Origin: Bdellovibrionales bacterium
Lineage (GTDB): Bacteria; Bdellovibrionota; Bdellovibrionia; Bdellovibrionales; JAGQZY01
NCBI GenBank assembly: GCA_020435205.1
Contig: JAGQZY010000003.1
Location: 1,537 to 65,536, forward strand
Reading direction: 5' to 3'
DNA length: 64,000 bases
This document shows positions 980-4,723 of the stretch, in pieces; the stretch's first letter is position 1, and each line of letters begins with the position of its first letter. The notes beneath the pieces are model-generated. The model was not told the DNA's origin. It saw nothing but the letters and a program-made list of their open reading frames with translations, and searched no databases. The translations under genes were made by a program, and so were the position numbers.

Positions 980-2389
980 ATGGAATTTCGCAAGAAATTA
1001 ATAATTAGACGAGGAATCAATTTATTTTTCCTCATAGGCGCGTTGTCGTGGATGGTGAACTGTAACCAGTTTCATACCTTTACGTCCAACGAATCGGATG
1101 CTCACTTATCAACTAACCCTGTTTTCGAAGATCCCGAGGATTCATTCCTTTTAGATGATCAACAAGGTAATCATACGACTCAACAAGTGGACCAAGGTGT
1201 CGTCGACCCTCTCAATCCTGTTGATGAGCCAAAAAGTCCGCCGACAACGACAACTGTGAATCTTCCACCCATTCGTGTTTGTACAGATAACGCTTCTTAT
1301 CAGATTTTGCGCAATGATGGCTCTACCTATACGCACTGTCGCCCCTGTGAAATTTGGGGAACTGAAAGAGATGACAATGGCACCGATCACCGTGTGTGTT
1401 TAGTTGAGCGTTGTGATGGCGAACAAAATCGCTATGTATTTTTGACAGATCTCAGCCGTAGCCGAACTTCTTGCCAACGTTGTGATGTTCTAGATCGTAG
1501 AACTGGCGTATGTACTGTTCGTGTTGAGCCTCCAGTGGTTCAGCCCCCTCGACCAACTCCGGTTGTGCAAAACCCAACCCCTTGTCAAATGGGCTGTGGT
1601 GGCGATGGTGGAGATGGCGGCGGCGATGGCGGCGACGGCGGTGATGGCGATCCTTTGATGATCGATACTGTTGGTGACCGCTATGCGAATGTTGATGAGT
1701 TTGCTTCCCGTTGGGAAGACCCTCGTAGCTACATAAAGCCAGGTGAATTGAATTTATCTTCACCTGAGCAAGGAACAAAATTCAATCTTCTTGGTCACCA
1801 GTCTCAACTTCAGGTTGATAATGGTTTTTACCATATCAATGATGCTGGTAAGAACTTTGAGTACCAAATCAGCTGGATTGATGAAAACAACACCCGTTAT
1901 CGCTTTTTAGCCTTGCCAAATGAAAAAGGTCAAATTCTTGGTATCGACCAACTTTTTGGTGACAATACTTTTGGCCCTGATCCTCAAAAGCCTTTTGCTA
2001 AAGATGGATTTCATGCCTTGATGAAGTTTGACATGAACCAGGACCAATATATCGATAGCAATGATGTAGCGACCGATGGTCAGAAAATTTATGACAAACT
2101 TCGCTTGTGGCACGATTACAACCGTAACGGTAAGGTTCTCGATGCTGCTGAAGCTAAGCGTGAGTTAATCACTTTACAGGAAGCTAAGATTCGCTTTATT
2201 CACTTAAAAGTGAATCACAACTATTACGAGATTGACGATCATGGAAATGAAATCACTTATAAGTCACTTGTGGGTTTCGATTCCGACGGCGGCGATAGTC
2301 TCAGAATGGGAATGGCCTTCGATGTGTGGTTCCAATATCGTAAAGATGAGAATCCAAACGCAAAAATTGAAAGTATACAAAGTAATTAA
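980..2389 (+). CDS. Secreted hypothetical protein: Cys-rich region, (GGD)n linker, C-terminal EF-hand/dockerin-like Ca-binding motif pair
   Basis: 469-aa ORF with a strong SD and a hydrophobic N-terminus (LFFLIGALSWMVNC). It has multiple CxxC-like Cys pairs and GGDGGDGGGDGGDGGDGD. The DxNxDxxID-like loops DMNQDQYIDSNDV and DYNRNGKVLDAAE match the pattern seen in secreted Ca-binding proteins. Confidence 0.75.
   Translation: MEFRKKLIIRRGINLFFLIGALSWMVNCNQFHTFTSNESDAHLSTNPVFEDPEDSFLLDDQQGNHTTQQVDQGVVDPLNPVDEPKSPPTTTTVNLPPIRVCTDNASYQILRNDGSTYTHCRPCEIWGTERDDNGTDHRVCLVERCDGEQNRYVFLTDLSRSRTSCQRCDVLDRRTGVCTVRVEPPVVQPPRPTPVVQNPTPCQMGCGGDGGDGGGDGGDGGDGDPLMIDTVGDRYANVDEFASRWEDPRSYIKPGELNLSSPEQGTKFNLLGHQSQLQVDNGFYHINDAGKNFEYQISWIDENNTRYRFLALPNEKGQILGIDQLFGDNTFGPDPQKPFAKDGFHALMKFDMNQDQYIDSNDVATDGQKIYDKLRLWHDYNRNGKVLDAAEAKRELITLQEAKIRFIHLKVNHNYYEIDDHGNEITYKSLVGFDSDGGDSLRMGMAFDVWFQYRKDENPNAKIESIQSN
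1598..1651 (+). repeat. In-frame GGY-GGY-GAY trinucleotide repeat encoding (GGD)n
   Basis: ggtggcgatggtggagatggcggcggcgatggcggcgacggcggtgatggcgat, read directly from the sequence. Confidence 0.8.
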
Positions 2390-2526
2390 GTTTCTCCGAA
2401 AGGAGATGGATACCCTGTTCTTGCAGAACGTCCATATTTGAAACACTCCCCCCCTAAGACGGTTGTCGAGTATATCGGCAGCCGTCAAATTTTTTCCGGC
2501 CAATTCAAAGCTTTTGACAATAGAGG

Positions 2527-2542
2527 TGGCACCTCGTTTGCT
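2527..2542 (+). promoter_or_regulatory. Sigma-54 (RpoN) -24/-12 promoter candidate with no annotated downstream gene
   Basis: TGGCAC-ctcgt-TTGCT is a full match to TGGCAC-N5-TTGC(A/T). It lies in the 360-nt gap between the 980..2389 gene and the convergent flagellin gene. Confidence 0.6.
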
Positions 2543-2552
2543 CTATTAGAAA

Positions 2553-2750
2553 TGAGTGGGAGAAGGAGTGCGGGTCGGGGGGCCTAAAAATTTTCTTCAA
2601 GAAAGACAAACATGAGGTTGGCGAGTTTGTCTTTCTGCACTTTCCTTTTCAATTTTGCTTTTGTTATCGATCTTAATAGAGTCGTCTGGCTTTATTAATG
2701 ACCCTCTTGTTTCACCGGGGCACCCAATGGTTGGGTGCCCCAAATTTTTT
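2553..2750 (+). ncRNA. Candidate sigma-54-dependent small transcript (sRNA or mRNA of a 28-aa hydrophobic micro-ORF at 2612..2698)
   Basis: It is bracketed by the sigma-54 promoter (TSS expected near 2552-2554) and a strong plus-strand intrinsic terminator (2717-2750). There is an internal 11-bp hairpin, agaaagacaaa (2600-2610) paired with tttgtctttct (2636-2646). No ORF of 60 aa or more is present. Confidence 0.3.
2717..2750 (+). terminator. Rho-independent terminator, plus-strand orientation
   Basis: Perfect 11-bp stem GGGGCACCCAA/TTGGGTGCCCC with loop tgg, followed by aaaTTTTTT. The U-tract exists only on the plus strand and overlaps the flagellin stop codon (2749-2751). Confidence 0.7.
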
Positions 2751-3582
2751 AACCTAATAACTTCAGTGCTAAGTTGGGAATGCTATTGGCTTGACCAAGC
2801 ATAGAAACGCCTGCTTGGAGAAGAATATTCTGTTTTGCAAGCTCTGCTGATTCTTCGGCCACATCGGTATCTCTAATACGGCTATTCGCTGCAGATAAAT
2901 TTTCATGCGTCGTATTAATATTATTAATAGTTGCTACTAGACGATTCTGTAGGGCGCCAAAATTGGCGCGCATGGAGTTCACTTTCACAATCGCCTCGTC
3001 AATCACACCTAGAGACAGTTGTGCACCCTGTTTGCTTGAAATGTTCTCAGCAGCAACACCGAGCGAGGTGAGAGTGGCATTTGCGGCTGTGGAATCAAAA
3101 GCAATACGATCATTAAAAGGATCATTGTGGACGCCGATTTGAAACTCAAGAACCCCGCCGAGGCCACTCAAAAGGGGGGTGCTATTAAACTCAGTGACTT
3201 CTGCCACTCTCTGAATTTCGTTTTTCAATTGTTGGAACTCGACGTTGGTAAAAGTTCTTTCGGTGTTACCCACGGTGTCTGAAGCCGCTTGGATCGATAG
3301 CTCGCGCATGCGAATGAGCATGTTACCAATTTCACCGAGACCACCTTCGGCGACTTGCACCATGGAAATGCCATCGCTCGCGTTTCTGTTCGCCTGCTTT
3401 AAACCTCGTATTTGGGCTCTGAGGTTTTCTGATATGGCGAGGCCAGCAGCATCGTCAGAAGCTTTGTTGATGCGGTATCCAGAACTCAAGCGCTCTAGAG
3501 ATCTCATCATATTGAGGTTCGTATTAAACAACTGTCGCTGTCCATTAATGGAGGGCAAATTGGTTGCTATACGTAATGACAT
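2749..3582 (-). CDS. fliC: Flagellin (short type, 277 aa)
   Basis: MSLRIATNLPSINGQRQL...DDAAGLAISENLRAQIRGL...ANFGALQNRL...AANSRIRDTDVAEE...LLQAGVSMLGQAN are conserved flagellin N- and C-terminal domains. The start is moved to the ATG at 3580-3582; the ORF-track start at 3666 would add 28 aa in front of the export N-terminus. Confidence 0.95.
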   Translation of the reverse strand: MSLRIATNLPSINGQRQLFNTNLNMMRSLERLSSGYRINKASDDAAGLAISENLRAQIRGLKQANRNASDGISMVQVAEGGLGEIGNMLIRMRELSIQAASDTVGNTERTFTNVEFQQLKNEIQRVAEVTEFNSTPLLSGLGGVLEFQIGVHNDPFNDRIAFDSTAANATLTSLGVAAENISSKQGAQLSLGVIDEAIVKVNSMRANFGALQNRLVATINNINTTHENLSAANSRIRDTDVAEESAELAKQNILLQAGVSMLGQANSIPNLALKLLG

Positions 3583-3859
3583 TTCATCATCCCCTTTTTT
3601 GACTGAGGGCTCTTCCTTGAATCTCAAGACAAACTGTTTAGCTTTTTTACCTTCTGTAAAAAGCAAAATATTTTTGACAAATTTTTAATCGGGTCTTGTT
3701 TAGCTTTGATAAAGTCTAGTTTGAAATGTTTTGAGAAATCTATACACCCGTCCAGGTAAAACAGAGGCCAAAGTTATTGGCCCCTGACGAGCAGGTAATC
3801 GAGGTCTTACGGCCCGATTGGTAAAGAGGGGGGTGTTCCTCATTCCTAGAGACCGTTAT

Positions 3860-3889
3860 ACATTCTCCTAAGGGTTATTAGGAGAATGT
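3860..3889 (-). terminator. Stable hairpin overlapping the flagellin stop codon; no U-tract
   Basis: ACATTCTCCT (3860-3869) pairs with AGGAGAATGT (3880-3889), a perfect 10-bp stem extendable by 2 A-T pairs. The stop codon at 3878-3880 lies inside it. No T-run follows on either strand, so termination is uncertain. Confidence 0.3.
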
Positions 3890-4723
3890 ACTGTTCAAGA
3901 GTTGTAAAGAAGCCTTAGCTGTCTGGTTCGCTTGAGCAAGGACAGAAGTTCCAGCTTGAAGCAAGATGTTCTGCTTCGTTAAGTTTGCTGTTTCTTCAGC
4001 TACATCCACATCGCGAATTCGACTATTGGCGGCTGCCATATTCTCTAACGAGATAGCTAAGTTATTAATTGTCGACATCAGTCGGTTTTGCATGGCTCCA
4101 AAATCTGCACGCATCGCAGAGACAGCAACAATGGCTTCGTCAATGGCGGCGAGAGAATTTTGTGCAGAGGCCTTGTCAGACACACTGGTCAAATTCACAC
4201 CGAGTGCTGCACTGTTCGCATCTGCTTTGGAAGCATCAAAACTCAATCGATCAATATTAGGATCGTTTCTTGTTCCGACCTGGAAATCAAGAATCGCACC
4301 TGTACCACTTAATAGGGGAGTTCCGTTAAACTCCGTACTATCAGCAATTCGATCGACTTCATCCAAGAGCTGTTGGTATTCAACATCAAGAAGCTGTCTT
4401 TCAACAGGGCCTATGGTGTCAGAAGCGGCTTGCACACCCAATTCACGAAGTCGGACTAATATATTTGCAATTTCTTGCATTCCGCCTTCTGCGACTTGGA
4501 TCATGGAAACACCATCTTGAGCGTTTCGCCAAGCTACTTTCAACCCACGGATTTGACCGCGTAAGTTTTCAGAAATCGCTAGGCCCGCAGCATCGTCACC
4601 GGCTCTATTGATTCGGTAACCCGAGCTTAGCTTCTCTAAGCTTTTATCGAGAGCAATCTTTGTTCCGTACAAATTTCTTTGTGCGTTTAAAGACGCCGTG
4701 TTTGTGTTAATCCTTAGGCCCAT
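3878..4723 (-). CDS. fliC: Flagellin (short type, 281 aa)
   Basis: MGLRINTNTASLNAQRNL...GDDAAGLAISENLRGQIRGL...DFGAMQNRL...AANSRIRDVDVAEE...LLQAGTSVLAQAN. The SD AAGGAGGAAGT lies directly upstream of the ATG. Confidence 0.95.
   Translation of the reverse strand: MGLRINTNTASLNAQRNLYGTKIALDKSLEKLSSGYRINRAGDDAAGLAISENLRGQIRGLKVAWRNAQDGVSMIQVAEGGMQEIANILVRLRELGVQAASDTIGPVERQLLDVEYQQLLDEVDRIADSTEFNGTPLLSGTGAILDFQVGTRNDPNIDRLSFDASKADANSAALGVNLTSVSDKASAQNSLAAIDEAIVAVSAMRADFGAMQNRLMSTINNLAISLENMAAANSRIRDVDVAEETANLTKQNILLQAGTSVLAQANQTAKASLQLLNSTFS

Follow-up and report, generated by a model that had tools for sequence, protein, structure and literature searches.

The window analysed here is a stretch of 64 000 nt (contig C101:1537-65536) from a metagenome-type genome assembly of 2.83 Mb (167 contigs, 44% G+C), whose relatives carry the label Bdellovibrionales. 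Within it, a plus-strand gene for a secreted protein of 469 residues (p469) and a minus-strand flagellin gene converge on a short spacer, and this spacer harbours the element studied here: an exact sigma-54 (RpoN) promoter with no gene behind it, a strongly folding stretch and an intrinsic terminator. A sequence-only reading of the window had taken the element for either a sigma-54-dependent small RNA (sRNA) or the mRNA of a small membrane peptide of the type I toxin kind. The analysis set out below leads us to prefer, tentatively, a sigma-54 transcription unit giving a lineage-specific sRNA of about 195 nt.

An orphan sigma-54 promoter and a second terminator between p469 and flagellin

The sequence TGGCACCTCGTTTGCT at 2527-2542 matches the sigma-54 consensus TGGCAC-N5-TTGCW at 11 of 11 positions, with a GG/GC spacing of exactly 10 nt, and part of it is contained in the palindrome GAGGTGGCACCTC (2523-2535). 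At the far end of the spacer stands a perfect 11-bp stem with 8 G-C pairs (-22.8 kcal/mol), followed by a T-run that shares its last two T's with the flagellin stop codon (TTA 2749-2751 on the plus strand). Read on the minus strand, the same hairpin lies 9 nt after the flagellin stop codon and has GGTGAAAC behind it instead of a U-run; it is thus oriented as a terminator for the plus strand only. The sequence-only reading had described a full RpoN consensus match on the plus strand and, overlapping the flagellin stop codon, an 11-bp GC-rich hairpin with a plus-oriented T-run, and both descriptions were confirmed.

That reading had also considered whether the region might simply be the 3' untranslated region (UTR) of the gene at 980-2389, that is, p469. 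It is not merely that, as it is located beyond the terminator of p469 itself, which precedes the orphan promoter by 32 nt and which has counterparts at the equivalent position 3' of the p469 orthologues of relatives. Because p469 has this strong terminator of its own, a second terminator on the plus strand requires a plus-strand transcript as its explanation.

Exact sigma-54 sites in the genome

At the level of the window the motif count is unremarkable, with 5 sites of at most one mismatch where 2.35 are expected. The whole genome, by comparison, has 15 exact TGGCAC-N5-TTGCT sites against the 1.9 predicted by word frequencies, and the same two words set at spacings of 0-4 and 6-12 yield only 0-6 sites each (mean about 2), as against the 15 at spacing 5. 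Most of the exact sites (11/15) are found 30-70 nt 5' of a Shine-Dalgarno (SD) sequence and start codon, mostly those of exported-protein genes. Fourteen are intergenic, one falls within a gene, and three of the 15 have no downstream gene. Crude open reading frame (ORF) calls put the coding fraction at about 93% of the genome, so that chance matches are expected mostly in coding DNA; for the non-coding ~7-10%, about 0.2 such matches would be expected, against 14 observed. It is thus very probable that the exact intergenic match at 2527-2542 is a true RpoN site. The genome carries one copy of rpoN (Sigma54_DBD match on contig C33, E 1.9e-65) and about 12 strong Sigma54_activat matches, representing enhancer-binding ATPases; the contig of the element is without an activator gene.

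As a set, the exact sites end without exception in TTGCT (15/15) and never in TTGCA, and the genes downstream of them mostly start with a signal-peptide-like sequence. This composition suggests that exported proteins form the centre of the RpoN regulon.

Two conserved gene-less precedents

Only two other exact sites in the genome are gene-less, at C84:13357-13372 on the minus strand and at C65:491 on the plus strand; a fourth orphan-promoter candidate, on contig C136, was dropped on account of an ORF of about 85 aa downstream. Both precedents are followed by terminated stretches, of 130 and 60 nt respectively, which are found with a GG-N10-GC promoter at 78-87% identity in 10-11 other species, and the stems of both RNAs show compensatory changes. 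In the C84 RNA GUUGUACGUU occurs twice, and a long stem carries the apical loop AUCUCCCCCCCCAA, after which comes the U-run. Of the 12 other species of the genus, 10 retain this RNA together with its promoter, at 78-81% identity, and a second genus contributes one species at 73%; folding of the alignment predicts 33 pairs, of which four show compensatory changes. Its layout is that of the studied element: the two flanking genes converge, and the RNA reaches into the 3' end of the gene facing it. The C65 RNA includes GUACGAUCCCAUAUCCCCCCCUUUUU ahead of its terminator, the stems of which show compensatory changes; 10 other congeneric species and one from the second genus keep this RNA, with its GG-N10-GC promoter. 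Members of this family also have a TGACA-N5-TGTCA-like palindrome 100-130 nt upstream. Neither the C84 nor the C65 RNA has a match in Rfam.

The existence of these two conserved, terminated RNAs indicates that the lineage does use sigma-54 promoters for small terminated RNAs. The studied element is like them in its exact promoter with CT(A/T)T after it, in its intrinsic terminator and in the lack of an ORF. However, the two precedents are conserved and share a poly-C motif (CUCCCCCCCC or AUCCCCCCC), whereas the RNA studied here has no poly-C, exceeds them in length, is G-rich in its 5' part and occurs in a single species.

The predicted RNA and its fold

From the position of the promoter and the terminator we infer a transcript spanning 2553-2750, with its 5' and 3' ends at these places, which would be non-coding and regulatory. 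The whole RNA folds with a minimum free energy (MFE) of -72.5 kcal/mol (z -4.47 to -4.87). When the terminator is left out, the body of the RNA has z -2.8, with none of 200 shuffled sequences folding as well, and its plus strand (-49.7 kcal/mol) folds better than its minus strand (-31.8 kcal/mol), a difference of 18 kcal/mol that favours a plus-strand RNA over palindromes at the DNA level. The three hairpins of 11-13 bp fold far more stably than shuffled sequence (z -3.0 to -3.4).

In the MFE fold, pairing of the 5' end with the segments listed in Table 1 encloses both the hairpin with the GGGG loop and the perfect 12-bp hairpin, while the U-rich linkers 2586-2599 and 2651-2670 and the loop AGGUUGG are unpaired. 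The sequence-only reading had placed an internal hairpin of 11 bp at 2600-2646. A hairpin is indeed there, but it measures 12 bp and ends at 2636; the further remark that its loop contains the ATG of a micro-ORF is correct, 2612-2614 being the first three loop bases.

Table 1. Features of the spacer, its flanking genes and the two conserved precedents (positions are those of the window unless a contig is given; SD, Shine-Dalgarno; MFE, minimum free energy)
Feature	Position	Strand	Remarks
p469, secreted-protein gene, 469 aa	980-2389	+	No Pfam match; sigma-54-dependent
p469 terminator	2458-2495	+	Stem 2458-2486, then AAATTTTTT; -21.3 kcal/mol, z -7.5
10-nt direct repeat CAAATTTTTT	2486-2495 (left), 2741-2750 (right)		Brackets a 255-bp module
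Sigma-54 (RpoN) promoter	2527-2542	+	-24 TGGCAC 2527-2532, -12 TTGCT 2538-2542; exact consensus
Predicted transcript, about 195-198 nt	2553-2750	+	Start taken 12 nt after the C (2541) of the -12 GC; end in T-run
Purine-rich, SD-like 5' segment GAGUGGGAGAAGGAGUGC	2554-2571	+	Pairs in MFE fold with GCACUUUCCUUUUC (2637-2650) and CCCUC (2702-2706)
15-codon ORF, GTG start	2568-2615	+	5 nt after GGGAG (2558-2562); read from sequence
Small G-rich hairpin, GGGG loop	2572-2585	+	From helix list of MFE fold
Perfect 12-bp hairpin	2600-2636	+	Arms 2600-2611/2625-2636, 13-nt loop starting AUG; -15.8 kcal/mol, z -3.4
28-aa hydrophobic micro-ORF MRLASLSFCTFLFNFAFVIDLNRVVWLY	2612-2698	+	No SD upstream
Third hairpin, 13 pairs including 2 G-U	2671-2701	+	From folding, helix list
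Second terminator	2717-2750	+	Arms 2717-2727/2731-2741, 3-nt loop, AAA spacer, T6 2745-2750
Flagellin gene (Flagellin_N + Flagellin_C), convergent	2749-3582	-	3' end abuts plus-strand terminator
Conserved sigma-54-driven sRNA, about 130 nt	C84:13216-13372	-	TGGCAC-N5-TTGCT promoter, U-run
Conserved sigma-54-driven sRNA, about 60 nt	C65:491 to about 590	+	Ends with AUCCCCCCCUUUUU and canonical terminator

Coding potential of the predicted RNA

The 28-aa ORF singled out by the sequence-only reading is present as described, with no SD sequence upstream. Its product would have a hydrophobic run of about 17 residues, but this hydrophobicity is a consequence of the T-rich sequence beneath it, all three frames of which are hydrophobic. 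Ahead of it lies the ORF of 15 codons, the TGA of which overlaps the ATG of the 28-aa ORF (ATGA), and the spacing of GGGAG and GTG from the promoter resembles that at real sigma-54 genes of this genome. The two ORFs may thus be translationally coupled, and such coupling would be the sole route to initiation at the ATG of the 28-aa ORF, although the arrangement may be due to chance; chance alone would give an open frame of 15 codons in about half of cases.

No homologue of the 28-aa peptide was found in 26 family genomes, nor any paralogue. Neither strand of 2000-4500 showed a sigma-70-type promoter, which leaves a type I system without its antitoxin gene, and read-through of the flagellin mRNA would be the only possible antisense. 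Lacking an SD sequence, homologues, a paralogue and an antisense promoter, and being hydrophobic in whichever frame is read, the small-peptide or type I toxin alternative put forward by the sequence-only reading drew no support from these results. In none of the ORFs does the start appear credible to us.

A variable slot in a conserved gene order

The order S8 peptidase (minus), p469 (plus) and flagellin (minus) is kept in several species; unlike this flanking gene order, the p469-flagellin spacer differs from one species to another. In five relatives the slot is occupied by one or two type IV pilin-like genes, and in one relative by unrelated sequence; no sigma-54 site was found in the slot of these relatives, and no sigma-54 promoter before their pilin genes. 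The pilin-like proteins of the slot are about 195 aa long, contain Cys and have an N-terminal KGFSLVELM motif. The source genome has its pilin orthologue elsewhere, at C26:1949-2491 on the minus strand, behind a sigma-70-type TATAAT-like element and without a sigma-54 promoter. In relative G008, a plus-strand terminator at this place belongs to the plus-strand (pilin) gene, and the flagellin gene has a separate terminator of its own. The flagellin gene of the source genome is without a U-tract terminator, and its sole 3' hairpin is the plus-strand terminator read backwards.

Three possible origins of the spacer sequence were considered and rejected. A relic of a pilin gene gave no significant match when the pilin proteins of three relatives were compared with 2380-2760 by tblastn. 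A duplicate of the p469 promoter region is no better founded, with 74 of 500 shuffles reaching the local alignment score, and for a tandem duplication of the preceding 255 bp as many as 462 of 500 did so. What does mark the edges of the module is the direct repeat CAAATTTTTT, each copy of which stands directly 3' of a terminator stem and contains the AAA spacer. Such an AAA between stem and T-run is atypical, being found in 2 of the 78 perfect-stem terminators of the genome. Of the signs of a mobile element, terminal inverted repeats were not found, nor was any other copy in the genome.

The neighbouring p469 gene has a sigma-54 promoter of its own, TGGTAC-N5-TTGCT at 935-950. Nine further species of the genus retain this promoter, and with it a strongly conserved control region upstream. 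This region (743-950), conserved genus-wide with the promoter in the form TGGTAY-N5-TTGCT, contains the palindromes GTTTCAATATGAAAC (about -90) and TGTGTACA-N5/6-TACACA as well as the block TCGTCGAACTTTTTTACAGGTG, all of which are probably sites for an enhancer-binding protein. Downstream of the gene, the layout of the 3' UTR (2390-2495) is kept in five relatives despite turnover of its sequence, and consists of a small hairpin, a C-rich single strand (CACUCCCCCCCUAAG in the source genome, CUCCC or ACCCCC in others) and the terminator. This layout resembles that of a 3'-UTR-derived sRNA with a C-rich seed.

Candidate partners of the RNA

A gene for CsrA is present in the source genome (C83:14263-14424), and the predicted RNA has only two GGA motifs, both of them paired. 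The idea that the G-rich 5' part might act as a sponge for, or be targeted by, the poly-C sRNAs or the p469 3' UTR was discarded, the duplex energies being no better than those with random genomic segments. An E-value scan of the locus against Rfam 15 brought up a single match, to a Caenorhabditis snoRNA model with 25 bits against a gathering score of 70, and this was dismissed as noise.

Interpretation of the element

A sigma-54 transcription unit giving a lineage-specific sRNA of about 195 nt is the reading that we prefer, at a probability that we would place a little short of even. RpoN-RNA polymerase would bind the consensus -24/-12 element at 2527-2542, and one of the ~12 enhancer-binding ATPases would open the complex; transcription would then begin near 2553 and halt at the hairpin and U-run of 2717-2750. 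The product would be a non-coding RNA whose purine-rich 5' end closes onto the pyrimidine-rich middle and onto the CCCUC before the terminator, in an enclosing fold that would contain two further hairpins and leave the U-rich linkers and the 7-nt loop free. We postulate that such an RNA could act as a riboregulator by base pairing, either in trans or, in cis, with the converging flagellin transcript; the U-less hairpin at the 3' end of that transcript, along with any read-through, would be fully complementary to the RNA. Of the sRNA proposal made by the sequence-only reading, then, the pairing of promoter and terminator is strengthened by the genome statistics and by the two conserved gene-less precedents, while conservation fails it.

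Several results weigh against this reading, among them those on conservation. DNA searches of 40 relatives, and of the whole genus (13 genomes, E up to 0.1), gave no homologue of the element but only chance matches of 18-30 nt, one of which, in G004, falls inside a coding region. Among metagenome contigs, the neighbouring protein brought up no relative, and the 8 matches to the hairpin pattern were all unrelated; a genome collection yielded one relative, already known. The promoter/terminator pair, which the sequence-only reading had looked to find conserved, is thus absent from the 12 congeneric species and from all 40 relatives searched, in contrast with the well-conserved C84 and C65 sRNAs. 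With no homologues to align, a covariation check is impossible, and an RNA confined to one species would have to be young or fast-evolving. As for regulation, enhancer sites typically stand 70-150 bp 5' of a sigma-54 promoter; here the enhancer common to the C65 sRNA family (TGACA-N5-TGTCA) is absent upstream, and the palindrome of the p469 upstream activating sequence is represented only by the half-site TTGAAACA at 2438, about -90; some bacterial enhancer-binding proteins, it should be said, act without a DNA site. The window has no match in Rfam at the gathering threshold, and tblastn found no Hfq gene in the source genome. Of two target scans, one for perfect complementarity (blastn-short) and one in which the pyrimidine-rich segment was folded as a duplex with every 5' region, neither rose above background, with flagellar genes ranking 168th or worse. 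The AAA spacer of the second terminator may lower its efficiency, and the flanking CAAATTTTTT repeats suggest that the module was recently inserted or rearranged, as would fit an element without function.

This last point underlies a different explanation, namely that the 255-bp module bracketed by CAAATTTTTT is a leftover or recent insertion, whether the promoter, 5' end and terminator of a sigma-54 gene that has lost its body or rearranged DNA, which may be transcribed but would have no selected function. It would account for a species-specific element in a slot that holds pilin-like genes or unrelated sequence in relatives and whose pilin orthologue is on C26, for the 10-nt repeats with their rare AAA spacer, and for an SD-like sequence and start codon after the promoter, as at real genes. 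On the other hand, an unselected site is not expected to retain all 11 consensus positions, and neither three hairpins of 11-13 bp nor folding so unequal between strands is expected of decayed coding sequence. The absence of any trace of a pilin gene in the region, the lack of sigma-54 promoters before the pilin genes of relatives, and the want of terminal inverted repeats, a second genomic copy or a tandem-duplication signal also speak against it, and we consider it unlikely, though well worth keeping in mind. A rather low probability attaches to the view that no productive transcript is made at all. The promoter would then be a chance or non-productive site, for example one where a stable closed complex forms a roadblock between the convergent genes, and in the hairpin at 2717-2741 p469 would have a fail-safe terminator and the flagellin mRNA a 3' stabiliser. 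Terminators often occur in tandem between convergent genes, and many sigma-54 binding sites without an associated gene have been reported in enterobacteria; here, moreover, no enhancer site was recognised and the flagellin gene has no other 3' hairpin. Yet the excess of non-coding matches over chance (14 against ~0.2) is hard to square with a chance site, the first terminator is already strong, and the 165 structured nt that separate promoter from terminator would be left unexplained.

The element could also be the mRNA for one or two tiny proteins, in which translation of the leader ORF would open the 2600-2636 hairpin and allow re-initiation at the ATG of the 28-aa ORF; the product could be a small membrane protein, or one like a type I toxin, silenced by the 5' fold. 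The geometry of GGGAG and GTG relative to the promoter, the ATGA overlap with its ATG at the base of the hairpin loop, and the hydrophobic run all point this way, as does the sequestration of the SD-like region in the MFE fold, which recalls type I toxin mRNAs. Set against them are the missing SD sequence of the 28-aa ORF, the hydrophobicity of all three T-rich frames, the lack of a homologue, a paralogue or a nearby sigma-70-type promoter, and the ease with which a 15-codon frame arises by chance; furthermore, we know of no precedent for a sigma-54-driven type I toxin. Altogether such an mRNA seems improbable to us. A more elaborate version, in which sigma-54 would gate a small-membrane-peptide switch, with a hidden ribosome-binding site, a leader ORF coupled to the 28-aa peptide and antisense silencing by flagellin read-through, strikes us as very improbable indeed. 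Were it true, this switch would tie a unit of the type I toxin kind both to the expression of flagellar genes and to an enhancer-binding protein.

Significance and comparison with known systems

Should the preferred sRNA transcript be real, the small group of sigma-54-dependent small RNAs would gain a lineage-specific member, and one that adjoins a flagellin gene in a lineage of predatory bacteria where riboregulation has hardly been explored. Better leads than the studied element are nevertheless offered by the at least two well-conserved, undescribed, sigma-54-driven poly-C sRNAs that the genus holds. Together with the conserved enhancer region before a secreted Cys-rich protein gene, these poly-C sRNAs provide a starting map of the RpoN regulon.

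The mRNAs of type I toxin-antitoxin systems (hok/sok, tisB/istR, aapA/isoA) share with the element a short hydrophobic ORF, a highly folded mRNA and a sequestered ribosome-binding region. In contrast to them, the studied element has a sigma-54 promoter, and it is without an SD sequence for the peptide, an antisense RNA gene, and paralogues or homologues.

Among the sigma-54-dependent RNAs of gamma-proteobacteria, Qrr1-5 (LuxO with sigma-54) and GlmY (GlrR with sigma-54) are conserved, act in an Hfq-dependent or protein-sequestering manner and have defined enhancer sites. The likeness lies in an orphan sigma-54 promoter that is followed by a short, terminated, non-coding RNA; the difference is that no Hfq gene was found in the genome studied here, and that the element has neither conservation nor a recognised enhancer site. 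Qrr is mentioned in an earlier report (10.1101/2021.07.01.450815).

A link to flagella is provided by CJnc230/FlmE of Campylobacter jejuni, an RpoN-dependent sRNA of the flagellar regulon (PMC11187230). It, too, is a small RNA dependent on RpoN in a flagellar gene neighbourhood, and shows that sigma-54-controlled sRNAs can tune flagellin expression. However, FlmE is cut from the 3' end of the flgE mRNA and represses flgM, whereas the RNA studied here would have its own promoter and be convergent to flagellin.

The Pxr sRNA of Myxococcus xanthus is intergenic, with a predicted sigma-54 promoter and multiple stem-loops (PMC5568312). Like the studied element, Pxr is a stand-alone intergenic gene with a predicted sigma-54 promoter and at least three stem-loops, the last of them a rho-independent terminator, and its host, like Bdellovibrio, was formerly placed among the Deltaproteobacteria. 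Pxr differs in being conserved across myxobacteria and in adjoining the gene of its enhancer-binding protein, while the studied element is species-specific, and the two have no sequence relationship. The RNA between p469 and flagellin would therefore belong to a known kind, that of Pxr, FlmE, Qrr and GlmY, and would hardly surprise a specialist.

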